A stretch of DNA of 49,856 bases from a virus (lineage: Duplodnaviria; Heunggongvirae; Uroviricota; Caudoviricetes). Under the pieces are notes generated by a model. That model was not told the origin of the DNA, did not search any database, and saw only the letters and a program-made list of their open reading frames with translations. How positions within the stretch are numbered: the first letter of the stretch is position 1; every line of letters begins with the position of its first letter. Shown in pieces: positions 1-49,856 of the stretch. Position numbers and translations under genes: made by a program. The stretch lies in the IMG/VR virus record IMGVR_UViG_3300029003_000089; one strand, 5' to 3'.

Positions 1-1410
1 TACTATCGGATAAGTGGATTGGCTATCAGCAGAGATCGTCGGCGACGAATCTCCATCCAGTGTAAAAGACGAATCAGCCGTCGAGACACCACTATCAGTA
101 ACGCTAATATTCATCACGGCATAGTTGGAAACGTTGCCTCTGTTATCCTGTACTGTGGCTCCAACATTCCACGAATTTACACCTTCGCTTTTATAAGCCG
201 GTAAAGTGATCTGCCATGATGTGCCATTTCCACTGATCTTGCCGCCAGCCGCAGTGAATGCACTATCATTCCACTGTACAGACTTGATACCACCACTAGC
301 ATTGTTGATTGTCAGTGTTACAGGGATGATTGATTCCCCCTCCCCCTGAACAGACTCTGGCAAACTGATTTTCAGTGCATGCTTCTTCTTGTACTCCAGA
401 ACAATGTTGTTATTTCGTTCAACAAAATCATAACGCCGGTTCTGGACTTCTCGCATAACTGCAACATTATCGCTGCTAAGCTGTTCAGCCAAGGAAACGC
501 CCGGGCGATAATTAAACTCAACACCAAAGGTTGTATCGTGAGTGTTGCTCTGTCCTTGCTTATGCTGTGCAGAAAACTTAATCAGAGGAACTGGTGTATA
601 AGAAATTCCCCCAGTAACTGCGTAAGGGTTTTCCTGCAGGTTATCGCTTCCAAATAACCCGACATTTTTACCATAATATTTTTCAAACTGAATAGATGCC
701 CCTAATTGCGGATAAGCAGGTAGCCATCCTTCAGCAGAAAAATCCCAGCCATTTGCAGGTCTTTCCAGATAATCATCAATATCACGACTGTTCTTCCAGT
801 CAGATAGACCAAAATAGGTATTTACACCAAGCCTGAAATAATCCCTCCAGTACTCAACCCCAAAACCTGCACGAGAGTGACTACGACTTAAATCGTAATC
901 ATAGAAAACATTCGCACCCAACATTGCGTTATCAGGAGTGAAATGACGAATCCCCAAACCAATATTGGTCTGATTTCGGTCATCAGTACGATGTAGTGAT
1001 GTCTGACTGAATAACACATAATCCTGAGTATCCAGCCATGGATATAAAAAGTCGAATGATGAATCCTTCAAGGAAAAAGAATCATCGACATTAAGCTTGA
1101 TGCGCGCATTGCCATATTGTTGCAACCAGTCGACGACCTCTTTTGTCGCCTGAGTTGATAAAGTATTTACAGCAAAACTACTTGCATTATTATTCGCCAG
1201 GCTCTGACCTGCACTTGCTGCAAATGAGGCCACTTTATTTGCATGCTCATCGCTGGCATAAATTTGCGTAACATCTTTATTACCAGATGATGCAAAACTG
1301 TTTGCTGGGATCAAAGAAAGAGAAACTGGAGATAATATCTGGGTAACAATTACCGACCATGTAATCGCGCCAGATGCAGTTTTTTTTAACTTTTTATTCA
1401 CAGTGGTCAT
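1..1410 (-). CDS. Inverse autotransporter (intimin/invasin family) outer-membrane protein, N-terminal 470 codons; 3' end lies beyond window start
   Basis: ATG at 1410-1408 (MTTVNKKLKK...). Hand translation of the first ~130 codons and the last 20 codons shows no stop; the middle of the frame was not checked. Beta-barrel-type motifs present (e.g. DSSFDFLYPWLDTQD). AT-rich upstream region 1411-1659. Not in the ORF track because no stop in window. Confidence 0.55.
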   Translation of the reverse strand, partial: MTTVNKKLKKTASGAITWSVIVTQILSPVSLSLIPANSFASSGNKDVTQIYASDEHANKVASFAASAGQSLANNNASSFAVNTLSTQATKEVVDWLQQYGNARIKLNVDDSFSLKDSSFDFLYPWLDTQDYVLFSQTSLHRTDDRNQTNIGLGIRHFTPDNAMLGANVFYDYDLSRSHSRAGFGVEYWRDYFRLGVNTYFGLSDWKNSRDIDDYLERPANGWDFSAEGWLPAYPQLGASIQFEKYYGKNVGLFGSDNLQENPYAVTGGISYTPVPLIKFSAQHKQGQSNTHDTTFGVEFNYRPGVSLAEQLSSDNVAVMREVQNRRYDFVERNNNIVLEYKKKHALKISLPESVQGEGESIIPVTLTINNASGGIKSVQWNDSAFTAAGGKISGNGTSWQITLPAYKSEGVNSWNVGATVQDNRGNVSNYAVMNISVTDSGVSTADSSFTLDGDSSPTISADSQSTYPIV

Positions 1411-1659
1411 AGTTCAATCAACGTTATGAATATAATGAAAAAAATAACTGGTATGACAAGAGGCGCGAAATATACAGCTCGTTACAAAAAAATCAACTCA
1501 AAAATAAAATAAAATCTCTGCATAAACTTTATGGCTAAATGATTTCACAACAATGGAAGAAAAATTTTGTTGCTCACGCAATCAATCATTTCGGGCGTTA
1601 CAACTAGTCCTAAATTATATTCGCTAGGTATACTTTATTTTTAAGCTAATACTTTAGCT

Positions 1660-2361
1660 CTATTTCATCGCTCCTTTCAGCCCGAACTTAGCTTTGATTT
1701 CTGCGATCTTCGCCAGAGCCTGTGCACGATTTAGAGGCCTACCGCCCATGACAGGAAGTTGTTTTACTGGTTCAGGTATAGCCTCACCACGGTTAATTCG
1801 CGCGGTCATACAGGCCAGTTCATCGGCAGCCTTGCGCCGTAATTCCGCGTCAGTCAACGCATTGGCCCGCATGTTCTGATACAGGTTGGTAACCAGCCAG
1901 TAGTGCGCGTTTGATTTCCACGGATAAGACTCTGCATCCGGATACAGACCACGCTTCCGGCAATACTCGTAAACCATATCAACCAGCTCGCTGACGTTTG
2001 GCAGCCCGGCGGTAACGGATGCTTCTTCCCGGCACCATGCAACAAACTGCCCGGGTGATGGCAGAAATGGTCTATTCTGCCGACGGGCAACACGCATTCC
2101 GGCGCTCACCTGCTCCATCGTGGTGATCCCGTTTTCCCGGAAAGCCAGAACCCACTGGCGGCGGATTTCGTTCAGTTCGTTCTGGTCACGATTAGCCAGG
2201 CTCGCCGGGAAAGTTGCCAGTAACTGGCTGAATACACCGTTGATTATCTGCGCTACCTGCTGTACCTGCGGCTTTTCGTCGTACTGTTCCGGCATGTTGT
2301 TGGCGATCCGACGCATCTGCTCACGGTCAAAGTTAATCATCTGTGCGGCGATGTTTTTCAT
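1660..2361 (-). CDS. P: Replication protein P (DnaB helicase loader), lambda P-like
   Basis: 233 aa translation matches remembered lambda P nearly end to end (MKNIAAQM..NFDREQMRRIANNMPEQYDEKPQVQQ...); overlaps O stop by 4 bp. Confidence 0.9.
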   Translation of the reverse strand: MKNIAAQMINFDREQMRRIANNMPEQYDEKPQVQQVAQIINGVFSQLLATFPASLANRDQNELNEIRRQWVLAFRENGITTMEQVSAGMRVARRQNRPFLPSPGQFVAWCREEASVTAGLPNVSELVDMVYEYCRKRGLYPDAESYPWKSNAHYWLVTNLYQNMRANALTDAELRRKAADELACMTARINRGEAIPEPVKQLPVMGGRPLNRAQALAKIAEIKAKFGLKGAMK

Positions 2362-3287
2362 AGATCCACCCCGTAAATCCAGTCTGTGTTTGTCAGGTCG
2401 AGTTTTGGTTTGCTAGCTGTCACGCCTGCCTGTTGCTTGTTACGGTTGATTTCGAGTTGGGTCCACTTGTCGCGGAGTTTGGCCGGACTTAGCACGTTAC
2501 CGGACCAGAAGTTGTCCTGGCATGCCCAGCGGAACAGCACGCACATGTCGCGGTGGTTACGTCCGTCACGTTCACGCATCAGGCGGATATCGTTAGCCCA
2601 CCCTGCAAAATTCGGTTTTCTGGCTGATGGCGCGATGGTCTTCACCATGTCAAACATCCACTCTGCGGCGGTCAGGTCTTCTGCTGTCCCCCACTTGCTG
2701 CCGCTCTGAATTGCAGCATCCGGTTTCACCACAGGAAGATCGTTTTCTGGTTGGTCAGAGGATTCGCCAGAATTCTCGGACGAAAAAGGTTTTATATTGT
2801 CTTTTGTTAGTTTGTCTTTTGTGTTTACCTGATTCGGGTAAACGCCTTTACCTGATTTGGGTAAACTTTTTTTACCTGATTCAGGTAAATTTACCTCTTT
2901 CAGGTAAACTTTATTTTTCTTACCTGATTCGGGTAATGTTGACCATTCACTGACCACATTATTAATGCCGGTATTCCGCCCGCTCTGAATAAAAATCCCA
3001 CGCTTTACCAGAACACTTTTTGCAGCAGAACACTTGTGCGGCAATATCCCGGTTAATTCGGAAAGTTGCTCGTTGCTAACCCAATCCAGTTTTTTATTAA
3101 AGCCATATGTTTTGCGCATGACAGCCAGGAAGACCAGAAGCTGGTGCTGTGTTAATCCGGCCAGCATCACAGCTTCCAGCAACTCATTTGCAATGCGCGT
3201 ATAACCATCATCGAGATCTGCCACGCGCGGCTCCTTTTGTGCCGCATCCGGCACTGGAAAATTGAATATCTCAGCAGTGTTTGCCAT
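2358..3287 (-). CDS. O: Replication initiator O-like protein
   Basis: Lambda O-like N-terminal region (VADLDDGY..., LRKTYG.N) starting at internal Met (MANTAEIFNF); ORF track extends to 3377 but the first 30 codons overlap the upstream gene; iteron repeats lie inside the gene as in lambda ori. Confidence 0.8.
   Translation of the reverse strand: MANTAEIFNFPVPDAAQKEPRVADLDDGYTRIANELLEAVMLAGLTQHQLLVFLAVMRKTYGFNKKLDWVSNEQLSELTGILPHKCSAAKSVLVKRGIFIQSGRNTGINNVVSEWSTLPESGKKNKVYLKEVNLPESGKKSLPKSGKGVYPNQVNTKDKLTKDNIKPFSSENSGESSDQPENDLPVVKPDAAIQSGSKWGTAEDLTAAEWMFDMVKTIAPSARKPNFAGWANDIRLMRERDGRNHRDMCVLFRWACQDNFWSGNVLSPAKLRDKWTQLEINRNKQQAGVTASKPKLDLTNTDWIYGVDL
2826..2936. repeat. Origin-like iterons inside O gene: five copies of TACCTGATTCGGGTAAAC-like inverted-repeat elements
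   Basis: Direct reading: tacctgattcgggtaaac / tacctgatttgggtaaac / tacctgattcaggtaaa / tacctctttcaggtaaac / tacctgattcgggtaa; translated as the PESGKK repeats in O. Confidence 0.8.
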
Positions 3288-11433: not shown

Positions 11434-11458
11434 TACATCATCATAAAACAACGGGCGT

Positions 11459-11482
11459 GTTATACGCCCGTTTCAATATTTA
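11459..11482. terminator. Bidirectional hairpin between convergent int and icd fragment
   Basis: acgggcgt gttat acgcccgt with T-rich flanks on both strands. Confidence 0.5.
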
Positions 11483-11500
11483 ACACATGTAGTGATTACA

Positions 11501-11660
11501 TATTCTTGATGATCGCGTCACCAAACTCTGAACATTTCAGCAGTTTAGCGCCTTCCATCAGACGTTCGAAGTCATAGGTTACGGTCTTGGCATTGATTGC
11601 GCCTTCCATACCTTTAACAATCAGGTCAGCCGCTTCAGTCCAACCCATATGGCGCAGCAT
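11501..11660 (-). pseudogene. icd: icd (isocitrate dehydrogenase) 3'-terminal fragment, att-associated duplicate
   Basis: Minus-strand translation [58 protein letters not shown] matches remembered Icd C-terminus; upstream frame closed by stop. Confidence 0.8.
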
Positions 11661-46659: not shown

Positions 46660-46787
46660 TTTGATTACTGCAAATGCCCCTGCGGGGGCATTTATGGAAA
46701 CGTAATTAACTCAATAATCGCCGGATGGTGAGGGCTTCCTTTTACCAGAATTCAGTGCGGTGCAGCGCAAATAACGTGGAGAACAAA

Positions 46788-47321
46788 ATGTCATTTATTA
46801 AAACTTTTTCTGGGAAGCATTTTTATTATGAAAGGATAAATAAAGACGACATCGATATTAACGATATCGCGGTTTCCCTTTCAAATATCTGTCGCTTTGC
46901 CGGTCATCTTTCGCACTTCTACAGCGTCGCCCAACATGCGGTGCTTTGCAGCCAGCTGGTACCGCAGGAATTTGCTTTTGAAGCGTTAATGCATGATGCA
47001 ACAGAAGCGTATTGCCAGGACATCCCCGCACCACTGAAACGCCTTCTTCCTGACTATAAACGGATNNNNNNNNNNNNNNNNNNNNNNNNNNNNNNNNNNN
47101 NNNNNNNNNNNNNNNNNNNNNNNNNNNNNNNNNNNNNNNNNNNNNNNNNNNNNNNNNNNNNNNNNNNNNNNNNTCGGGCTTGATGATGGCTCTTTCTGGC
47201 CTGTACTGGAAGGTATCCCGGCAACAGAGATGTTCAACGTGATTCCACTGGCACCGGGCCATGCCTACGGGATGTTTATGGAACGTTTTAAAGAGCTGCA
47301 TAAGATGCATAAGCAATCCTA
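46788..47321 (+). CDS. YfdR-like HD-domain phosphohydrolase, interrupted by assembly gap
   Basis: N-terminal part MSFIKTF...CRFAGHLSHFYSVAQHAVL...MHDATEAY (HD-type motifs) before the N run; C-terminal part ...FNVIPLAPGHAYGMFMERFKELHKMHKQS-stop after it. Confidence 0.5.
47066..47173. other. Run of 108 N (assembly/scaffold gap)
   Basis: Literal n characters in sequence. Confidence 0.99.
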
Positions 47322-47376: not shown

Positions 47377-47622
47377 ATGCTTCAAATGCTGACACTTGAG
47401 GAATGGGCTGCGGAAAAATTTAGGAGTAACCCTCCAAGTGTGTCCACATTGCGTCGTTATGCTAAGCAGAATTTATTTTGTCCACCGGCAATGAAACAAG
47501 GTCGACTATGGCGAGTACGTGAGGACGCAGAGTTAGTTGGAGAATTAGTTACTCCTGTCATTAAGAAAAGTGATTCTATTATTCTACAAAGGATTTTAAG
47601 TAATGGCAGCCAGACCACGTAA
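47377..47622 (+). CDS. xis: Excisionase (Xis-like)
   Basis: 81 aa; paralog of the 10014-10250 product (TLEEWAAEKF...LRRYAKQ...PPAMKQGRLW). Confidence 0.6.
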   Translation: MLQMLTLEEWAAEKFRSNPPSVSTLRRYAKQNLFCPPAMKQGRLWRVREDAELVGELVTPVIKKSDSIILQRILSNGSQTT

Positions 47623-48730
47623 GAATAATGTTTCAGTCCCGAACTTGTATCCGCTCTATAGCAGAAAAGTAAATAAAGTTTATTGGCGATATAAGCATCC
47701 AGTGACCGGGAAGTTTCATTCTTTGGGCACAAACGAAGCTGAAGCCATTGCTATTGCCACTGAGGCCAATACACGCCTAGCTGAGCAAAGAACCCGGCAG
47801 ATTCTAGCTATCAGTGACAGGATCGCAACCAGCAAAGGAAAAGCAATCACAACGTCAACCTGGTTAGATCGCTATCAAGCAATCCAGGAAGACAGACTGA
47901 AAAGTGGCGATATAAAGCTCAACACCTATAAACAGAAAGCCAAACCAGTATCCTTGCTCAGGGAACGAGCAGGACTGAAGTTAATTTCAGCCGTTGATGT
48001 CAGGGATATAGCCCAGTTGCTTGACGAGTATATCGCCGCCGGACAGCCGAGAATGGCGCAAGTAGTTCGTTCCGTACTGATTGATGTTTTCAAAGAGGCG
48101 CAACACTACGGAGAAGTCCCCCCTGGCTATAACCCGGCATTAGCCACCAAACAGCCCAGAAGAAAAATTACCCGACAACGGTTAAGTCTTGAAGAGTGGC
48201 AAAAAATCTTTGATATCGCTGATGCCAGTCATCGTTATATGGGGAATGCCATGCTGTTAGCACTGGTTACCGGCCAGAGGTTAGGTGATATCTCGCGTAT
48301 GAAATTTAGCGATATTTGGGATGATCATCTCCATGTCATCCAGGAAAAAACCGGGAGCAAAATCGCCATCCCGCTTTCCCTGCGTCTCAATGCGATTAAC
48401 TGGAGTTTGCGCGATGTAGTAGCCCGCTGCCGTGACTATGCTGTCAGCCCATACCTTGTACATTTTTTTCGTACTACCTCACAGGCTGAACGCGGCGCGC
48501 AGGTTAAAGCCAATACATTGACGATGAATTTCAGTAAAGCGAGGGATTTAGCAGGAATTAACTGGGGTGAAGGTTCTCCCGCAACATTTCATGAACAAAG
48601 GTCTTTATCAGAACGTTTGTATAAAGAACAGGGTTTAAATACACAAAAACTACTTGGTCATAAAACGCAACAGCAAACCGATCGTTATCATGATGATCGA
48701 GGTAAAGGATGGAGTAAAGTAGCGTTGTAA
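47603..48730 (+). CDS. intE: Tyrosine integrase IntE (e14-type, icd-targeting)
   Basis: 375 aa; matches remembered e14 IntE in length and sequence blocks; overlaps xis. Confidence 0.9.
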   Translation: MAARPRKNNVSVPNLYPLYSRKVNKVYWRYKHPVTGKFHSLGTNEAEAIAIATEANTRLAEQRTRQILAISDRIATSKGKAITTSTWLDRYQAIQEDRLKSGDIKLNTYKQKAKPVSLLRERAGLKLISAVDVRDIAQLLDEYIAAGQPRMAQVVRSVLIDVFKEAQHYGEVPPGYNPALATKQPRRKITRQRLSLEEWQKIFDIADASHRYMGNAMLLALVTGQRLGDISRMKFSDIWDDHLHVIQEKTGSKIAIPLSLRLNAINWSLRDVVARCRDYAVSPYLVHFFRTTSQAERGAQVKANTLTMNFSKARDLAGINWGEGSPATFHEQRSLSERLYKEQGLNTQKLLGHKTQQQTDRYHDDRGKGWSKVAL

Positions 48731-48909
48731 AGCATTAAGTGCCTTAACGCCACCTTGAATTTCGAACTACACTTGAAAAAGAACCAAACAGTCCACTTTG
48801 AGCAAAAAGCAGAAGTTCGCAGTTAATCTCGAAACCTAATAGTTACATTACTAATATTGTGACGTGTTAATCAATGGAGAGCAGATCAGTTATTGAGCTT
48901 AATTTCAAT

Positions 48910-48944
48910 AGATACCAAGCTCTTATGCATAGAGCTTGGTATCT
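48910..48944. terminator. Perfect 14-bp hairpin between convergent intE and HNH-motif gene
   Basis: agataccaagctct tatgcat agagcttggtatct followed by atttaataaaa. Confidence 0.6.
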
Positions 48945-48998
48945 ATTTAATAAAATGGAACTACGAAATTAGAACAAAAATAAAAAATTCAAGCATTA

Positions 48999-49856
48999 CT
49001 ACAAGTCTGACATAAGAGCCAAACACATAACCCGTTCCCAATGATTCACAAAAGGCGATTTATTAATTATTGTTTGAAATATAAGGTGTTTAGCAGCATT
49101 TTTATCTCTGGATAGTGGTAGCACTGAGTTATATAGAGCTAAAAGTACAACTAATCTCGCACTAGCCTCTTTCGAATATCTTAAAGACAAATCAAAATCG
49201 TTAAAATGTTTTTCCACTCTTTGTTTATGTGCTTCATCCCAATCAGCCGGTGGAGAAACAAAATACTCAATAACTCCTGGCTCATCATTTTTGCCAGCCA
49301 AGTATCTAGCCGATATCCACTGTTCATCATAATAACGGCTATCGTCTAAATAGGGATGTATGATCTGTTCTGCTTCATTTCTTGCAAAAACTTCCCCTTT
49401 GCCATCCATATTACAGTCTCGACAAGCAGGCACCAGATTAACTGGCAATATAGAAAACTGAGGATAGTAAGCTTTAGGCAAATAATGATCTAAATTTCGA
49501 GGGCGCCCAATTCCACCACAATATGGACATTTTTCATTAGCAGCAGTAATCAGGGAATCATAAATAGCTCGAGCAGGCTTTTTCTTCCCAACAACATAAT
49601 TGCCATAAAGCTTAACAAAGTCAGATTTCTTTAACCGACCGACAACAATAGGGTCTTCCTTATCTTTGTTTTTCAATGGTTGTATTGTATAAAGCTCACC
49701 AGTTGATGCCGATGCGCTATATGAAGCTGCCAGTGTTTGCAAATCAGTTATTGCTTCATTTACTTTCAGCAACAAGCCCGGATTACCGGTTATGCCTTCG
49801 CGGCAACTAGTCAGCATATCGGCATATGTGTAAGCAGGTTGTTTAAGTTTCAACAT
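48999..49856 (-). CDS. HNH-motif protein at int-proximal prophage end (possible defence nuclease); ATG on last three bases of window
   Basis: 285 aa; CPYCGG...NLDHYLPKAYYP...NLVPACRDCN HNH-like motif; AT-rich; occupies the position held by lit in K-12 e14. Confidence 0.5.
   Translation of the reverse strand: MLKLKQPAYTYADMLTSCREGITGNPGLLLKVNEAITDLQTLAASYSASASTGELYTIQPLKNKDKEDPIVVGRLKKSDFVKLYGNYVVGKKKPARAIYDSLITAANEKCPYCGGIGRPRNLDHYLPKAYYPQFSILPVNLVPACRDCNMDGKGEVFARNEAEQIIHPYLDDSRYYDEQWISARYLAGKNDEPGVIEYFVSPPADWDEAHKQRVEKHFNDFDLSLRYSKEASARLVVLLALYNSVLPLSRDKNAAKHLIFQTIINKSPFVNHWERVMCLALMSDL

Follow-up and report, generated by a model that had tools for sequence, protein, structure and literature searches.

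The closest described relatives of the locus analyzed here are the Septu systems. Stand-alone type I Septu (structures 8EE4/8EE7; E. coli EcB88) is a two-gene operon in which an ABC ATPase (PtuA) is followed by an HNH nuclease (PtuB), without a reverse transcriptase (RT). In the tested E. coli Septu system, PtuA has Walker A residue K43 and Walker B residue D316, and the catalytic residue of PtuB is H75. In solved PtuAB complexes, PtuB is clamped at its helical C-terminal domain by two C-terminal extensions of PtuA; once released, PtuAB nicks supercoiled DNA, and retron PtuAB is toxic on release (PMC12819146). According to PMC13001434, ATP restrains Septu and a fall in ATP activates it. A second relevant catalog is PDC-M, the multi-gene phage defence candidates of Payne et al. 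(2024), which were predicted by guilt-by-embedding, the cassettes being nested within BREX, DISARM, or type I restriction-modification (RM) loci. Here we examined an HNH gene at one end of a 49,856-nucleotide stretch of Caudoviricetes DNA (IMG/VR record IMGVR_UViG_3300029003_000089), referred to as the window. The product of this gene is very probably the nuclease component of a Septu-family candidate anti-phage system made up of two genes (PDC-M01), which an e14-like prophage carries as cargo in the slot flanked by its integrase gene and the icd attachment site. The assignment is based directly on gene structure, conserved pairing, homology and fold, conservation of catalytic residues, and hotspot location; complex formation, trigger, substrate, and anti-phage phenotype of the pair are inferred by analogy with its relatives.

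The two features of the window that concern the nuclease are as follows.

48999 to 49856, minus strand: complete coding sequence of a 285-amino acid (aa) PtuB-like nuclease, second gene of an ATPase-HNH pair
49410 to 49529, minus strand: HNH ββα-Me core and Cys4 zinc finger (C110, C113, D123-H124, N140, C145, C148, N149)

As stated in a preliminary description of the window, the ATG of this gene takes up the final three bases (CAT in the orientation shown), and the gene is AT-rich. Its GC content is 0.386, whereas int has 0.457 and the window overall 0.491. The encoded protein is 100% identical to RefSeq WP_001556896.1, which is labeled merely 'HNH endonuclease'. The same description had allowed that the open reading frame (ORF) might be a piece of a longer gene. 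This was ruled out by the identical copy in E. coli MCJCHV-1, in which the sequence …TAA GTA ATG… places a TAA in the HNH frame two codons 5' of the ATG, indicating that the 285-aa protein is complete. A length of ~285 aa is also kept across 413 database homologs.

The predicted active site is well conserved. The motif, which had been proposed as CxxC...DH...N...CxxCN, reads C110-P-Y-C113, D123-H124, N140, and C145-R-D-C148-N149, and none of its eight residues varies among 31 aligned homologs with 48-91% identity to the query. The position of the C110 codon was confirmed against the window sequence. The protein thus has the catalytic His, the structural and metal-binding Asn residues, the Cys4 zinc site, and the ββα fold of the HNH superfamily. 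It is matched by PHROG 10378 'HNH endonuclease' (1.7e-130) and, over its full length, by the PADLOC model PDC-M01B (1.1e-114); these matches and the 413 length-conserved homologs show that the ORF is not a chance one. Pfam and NCBIfam searches gave sub-threshold matches only, including a weak Pfam HNH match at residues 110-149 (13.2 bits, cut-off 21.4). The TIGRFAM/Pfam HNH profile search suggested in the preliminary description fell below the cut-off with Pfam HNH and with TIGR02646, considered below.

The partner ATPase gene is outside the window, and its presence in the source genome is inferred from near-identical copies of the locus elsewhere. HNH copies with at least 99% identity were found in 82 complete E. 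coli genomes, and a gene annotated as 'AAA family ATPase' abuts the HNH start in all 20 E. coli records among the matches listed. In MCJCHV-1 (record L001), xis and intE are followed by the HNH gene and then by the gene for a 505-aa ATPase, both on the minus strand; 436 bp without coding sequence separate the latter from icd. The ATPase gene (L001 10157-11674) is directly upstream of the HNH gene and co-oriented with it, and its stop codon shares one base with the HNH start (TAATG, in the context …GTT AAG TAA TG…), which suggests translational coupling of the two. No consensus promoter was found upstream of the ATPase gene by a promoter scan. A sub-threshold Rfam match to the Hfq-binding small RNA STnc150 (L001 11851-12097, plus strand; 34.9 versus 60 bits, E 5.8e-05) is located between the ATPase gene and icd and overlaps the icd terminator region.

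The ATPase is matched at residues 1-504 by the PADLOC model PtuA1|PtuA PDLC00282 (2e-239) and over its full length by PDC-M01A (1.3e-217). An upstream, co-oriented AAA-type ATPase had been anticipated; such a partner exists in the near-identical E. coli copies, but its matches to Pfam AAA_21 and AAA_15 identify it as ABC/SMC-type rather than classical AAA+. Its ABC motifs are conserved: Walker A (G194-x4-G199-K200-T201), a signature-like sequence (S346-S347-G348-H349), Walker B with the catalytic Glu (D372-E373), and the H-loop (H406). Its AlphaFold2 model (pLDDT 83.7) has helices at the C-terminal end (residues 443-504). Residues 1-150 form an extra, conserved β-rich region with invariant positions such as W27, D29, H48, and K54-I55-G56. 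No match to this region was found in a Pfam search, and it is possibly a sensor or oligomerization module.

The association of the two genes is conserved well beyond E. coli. In a survey in which one genome per species was scanned, relatives of the pair were found in at least 213 species genomes, and 90 of 5426 complete E. coli genomes carry the pair. In 79 of the best 80 of these loci, all from other species, tblastn placed the ATPase gene directly upstream of the HNH gene, on the same strand and abutting it, often with overlapping stop and start codons; the lone exception has a truncated HNH gene. In a Pedobacter genome and a deltaproteobacterial metagenome-assembled genome (MAG), the end coordinate of a 505-aa ATPase is the start of a 285- or 286-aa HNH protein. 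In each pair examined, conservation was higher for the ATPase than for the nuclease.

These data bear on whether the gene could be a free-standing homing endonuclease, as the preliminary description had considered, or a phage terminase-packaging helper, in either case unrelated to the ATPase. HNH genes are common in phage genomes, and the PHROGs family label is simply that of an HNH endonuclease. The gene is nevertheless at the int-attachment site (att) end of the prophage, away from the structural and packaging genes, and a near-identity DNA search (megablast) with it gave no match in a phage genome collection. Because the partner gene is fixed and because of the position of the gene, a solitary homing or packaging HNH is effectively excluded, and we rate it as extremely unlikely.

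Two further observations were made among the relatives. In the deltaproteobacterial MAG, the pair adjoins a block of small genes with a weak Phage_Coat_B match (inovirus-like; L005/L006 829-1092 and neighbors) and also an HTH plus Peptidase_M78 gene, another mobile-element context. Separately, contigs L077-L089 gave the same tblastn identities (39% for HNH and 53-55% for the ATPase) across the unrelated genera Streptomyces, Oceanobacillus, Neobacillus, Bradyrhizobium, Leeuwenhoekiella, Pseudomonas, Shewanella, and Chromatium, with equal coordinates where the full flank is present. Those contigs with coverage in their names have very low values, about 1-10x, and these matches look like shared contamination rather than biology.

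Comparisons of fold and profile link both proteins to Septu. In the AlphaFold2 model of the HNH protein (pLDDT 86), ~95 mostly helical residues precede the core, and helices at residues 208-284 form the C-terminal end. The top three Foldseek matches to this model were PtuB proteins (probability 0.98-0.99), and its nearest solved structures were Septu and retron PtuB, with 8ee7_C PtuB as the best neighbor. The fold matches span 160 PtuB residues, beyond the ~80-residue HNH core, which further argues against a free-standing HNH enzyme. Profile-profile comparisons were made with hhalign against five annotated PtuB and five PtuA proteins from plasmids. The HNH protein matched the PtuB set with 96.8% probability (E 2.4e-10) over residues 96-226, again exceeding the HNH core, and the ATPase matched the PtuA set with 99.1% probability (E 1e-18). 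By sequence, the HNH protein matched PtuB entries of the PDB at E 0.0066-0.036, and the ATPase matched retron PtuA at ~1e-7. For both proteins these sequence matches, from single-sequence and profile searches, are weak and confined to motif regions, and the relation to PtuA and PtuB therefore rests on the fold searches and profile-profile comparisons.

The locus has the Septu arrangement of co-oriented adjacent genes with the ATPase first, a PtuA-family ATPase, and a nuclease with the PtuB fold, in which, as in Septu PtuB, a helical C-terminal domain follows the HNH core. Weighing against assignment to Septu, the nuclease is not in the curated PtuB family TIGR02646, for which it scored 15.3 bits against a cut-off of 52.15. 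With PADLOC, the best 25 of its 56 matches were all to PDC-M01B, and any PtuB match was below 51 bits. The suggestion that the gene supplies the nuclease of a Septu-like ATPase-HNH pair is thus upheld by conserved pairing, the PtuA match, and the PtuB fold, with the qualification that the nuclease belongs to a separate sequence family from canonical PtuB. The pair is best described as a divergent member of the Septu family that is already catalogued as a candidate. Its adjacent genes match the PDC-M01A and PDC-M01B hidden Markov models, but this cassette is prophage cargo, unlike the embedded cassettes from which PDC-M01 was predicted. PADLOC PDC-M01 calls are reported to duplicate PADLOC Septu calls on the same genes, and this overlap indicates that PDC-M01 is not a separate kind of system. 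The analysis therefore identifies a widespread Septu relative whose nuclease is missed by the curated PtuB model, although standard defence-finding software would pick up the locus if given both genes.

Other systems share parts of this design. Gabija GajA, PARIS AriAB, OLD, and AbiL resemble the pair in having an ABC ATPase fold and an ATPase that controls a nuclease, but their nucleases are TOPRIM or other enzymes, not HNH. A restriction-like ATP-dependent nuclease in the style of McrA, OLD, or Gabija would attack incoming DNA directly instead of acting by abortive infection. PtuA and PtuB matches are far stronger than matches to those families in every comparison; for the ATPase, PADLOC gave AriA 5.6e-17 and AbiLi 8.3e-14 versus 2e-239 for PtuA. 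Since the models of these families score so far below PtuA, the OLD, Gabija, or PARIS reading is disfavored, and we regard a restriction-like mode of action as very unlikely.

Retrons deserve separate consideration. The PtuAB proteins of retron-Eco7 (Ec78) and Ec83 (type I-A) are the best PDB sequence matches for both proteins and are also high fold matches, with the Ec78/Eco7 PtuA and PtuB as the nearest solved relatives by sequence. The HNH protein could accordingly be the effector module of such a retron ('Septu type II') or of another multi-gene system whose remaining parts are further upstream. In E. coli, however, all that lies between the ATPase gene and icd is the 436-bp non-coding stretch, with no annotated RT, and an Rfam scan found no retron RNA family at E<=1. 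The upstream genes in Pedobacter and in the deltaproteobacterial MAG differ and lack an RT domain. The pair thus lacks the RT and the msr/msd RNA of a retron and is not a type I-A system; we see next to no chance that it is part of a larger assembly of this kind. The elements of retron PtuA that bind RT and msDNA are not expected in the ATPase of this pair.

Several features distinguish the pair from the tested E. coli Septu system within the Septu family. The corresponding residues are K200, D372, and H124 instead of K43, D316, and H75. Both CxxC pairs of the zinc finger are present in the window HNH protein, as is a DH dipeptide, whereas five aligned TIGR02646 PtuB proteins have EH and are without the second CxxC. 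Its N-terminus is ~50-70 residues longer than that of Septu PtuB, and the N-terminal β-rich region of the ATPase, roughly 150 aa, is absent from the tested E. coli PtuA. A literature search found no experimental test of a pair of this subtype and no mention of its RefSeq accessions. It is conceivable, though we hold this only tentatively, that the pair represents a distinct Septu clade in which the extra N-terminal modules (~150 aa, β-rich, in the ATPase; ~95 aa, helical, in the nuclease) sense another phage cue or direct the HNH domain to a substrate other than that of canonical Septu. If so, it would be a mechanistically separate subtype, widespread in Proteobacteria, Bacteroidota, and other phyla.

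The solved PtuAB complexes offer a model of how the pair might work. In the predicted structures, the C-terminal helices of both proteins (ATPase 443-504 and HNH 208-284) are compatible with the same clamp. By analogy, ATPase dimers or oligomers would grip the HNH protein by packing their C-terminal helices together with its helical C-terminal domain into a bundle. In uninfected, ATP-replete cells the nuclease would be kept in check, and a phage cue or ATP depletion would free it. At the zinc-finger HNH site, H124 would act as the general base, with N140 and N149 at the metal. The freed HNH enzyme would then cut nucleic acid, by DNA nicking or by tRNA-Tyr cleavage, as reported for Septu. Phage growth would be halted, with host growth paid as the cost. 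Study of the pair would tell whether the ATP-gated nuclease logic and tRNA-Tyr targeting of Septu extend to this clade.

A toxic nuclease with a restraining ATPase could also serve mainly as an addiction or stabilization module that ensures retention of the prophage or of its cargo slot. This design resembles toxin-antitoxin logic, and the toxicity of released retron PtuAB (PMC12819146), the constant location of the cassette on mobile or variable DNA, and the stronger conservation of the ATPase than of the nuclease all fit such a role. The closest relatives with data, Septu and retron-Eco7, nevertheless protect against phages, and the slot carries known defence genes elsewhere (Lit and DarT-macro). 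We consider addiction unlikely as the main function, and the two roles are not mutually exclusive.

The candidate defence function also agrees with the location of the cassette. Relevant features of the window are listed below.

47377 to 47622, plus strand: xisE-like excisionase (ORF; annotation in MCJCHV-1 and K-12)
47603 to 48730, plus strand: intE-type tyrosine integrase of an e14-like prophage (ORF; annotation in MCJCHV-1)
48804 to 48998, no strand: cargo-specific non-coding DNA, with the left slot border at 48803/48804
48904 to 48950, no strand: 20-nt inverted repeat, 95% complementary, with a 7-nt loop (repeat search)
11442 to 11660, minus strand: second copy of the icd 3' end with terminator, 95% over 219 bp to the MCJCHV-1 icd 3' end

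By blastn, xis and int are 88% identical to those of K-12 e14, and homology stops at 48803, 73 bp past the int stop codon. The K-12 order is icd-[C0293, ymfD, ymfE, lit]-intE-xisE, with a slot of 3.0 kb; in MCJCHV-1 the strain-specific slot segment is 2.8 kb (L001 9105-11898). The cassette is therefore located between intE and icd, where K-12 e14 has ymfD-ymfE-lit, in agreement with the placement in the preliminary description. The int allele is at least 99% identical in 82 records, the same number as for the HNH gene. Sampling of other intE alleles in E. coli showed that the cargo of the int-icd slot varies among strains, as follows.

K-12: ymfD, ymfE, lit
MCJCHV-1 (and the HNH end in the window): 505-aa ATPase and 285-aa HNH protein
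8GC: 569-aa ATPase and DNA adenine methylase
GPEC617: two hypothetical proteins of 271 and 142 aa
PF9285: 858-aa ATPase and ComEC/Rec2-family protein
S87: DarT and macro-domain protein

Lit, whose K-12 annotation is 'cell death peptidase Lit', protects against T4 by abortive infection. It occupies the same cargo slot but is unrelated to the pair in protein and mechanism. The proposal that the int-att space is a defence hotspot is supported by this variation: in e14-type prophages, the slot swaps Lit, DarT-macro, ATPase-methylase, and the Septu-like pair among E. coli strains. The cargo of 8GC, GPEC617, and PF9285 is uncharacterized and may merit its own study.

The inverted repeat is 49-95 bp 3' of the HNH stop codon, between the convergent int and HNH genes. 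It is without a T-run, and a simple terminator scan gave no call there; it is probably a transcription stop for the cassette. The second icd 3' end delimits the cassette-carrying prophage at its far attachment site; the prophage accordingly runs from ~11.66 kb to past the end of the window, a span of roughly 40 kb.

The prophage is a mosaic that is not represented whole in the collection of complete E. coli genomes. No genome in that collection has at least 80% of window positions 25000-49856 in one place, and the best matches to this region (96%) include the structural genes and leave out the int-HNH end. At the other end of the window, positions 1-3282 are 96% identical to an MCJCHV-1 block (inverse autotransporter, replication proteins P and O) that adjoins insertion sequence elements and xis-int, which points to the remnant of another, older prophage in tandem and to a deletion in MCJCHV-1. 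Finally, a run of 108 N at 47066-47173 interrupts an ORF at 46725-47183 (plus strand) that occupies the position of yfdR (5'-deoxynucleotidase / HD hydrolase) in related prophages.
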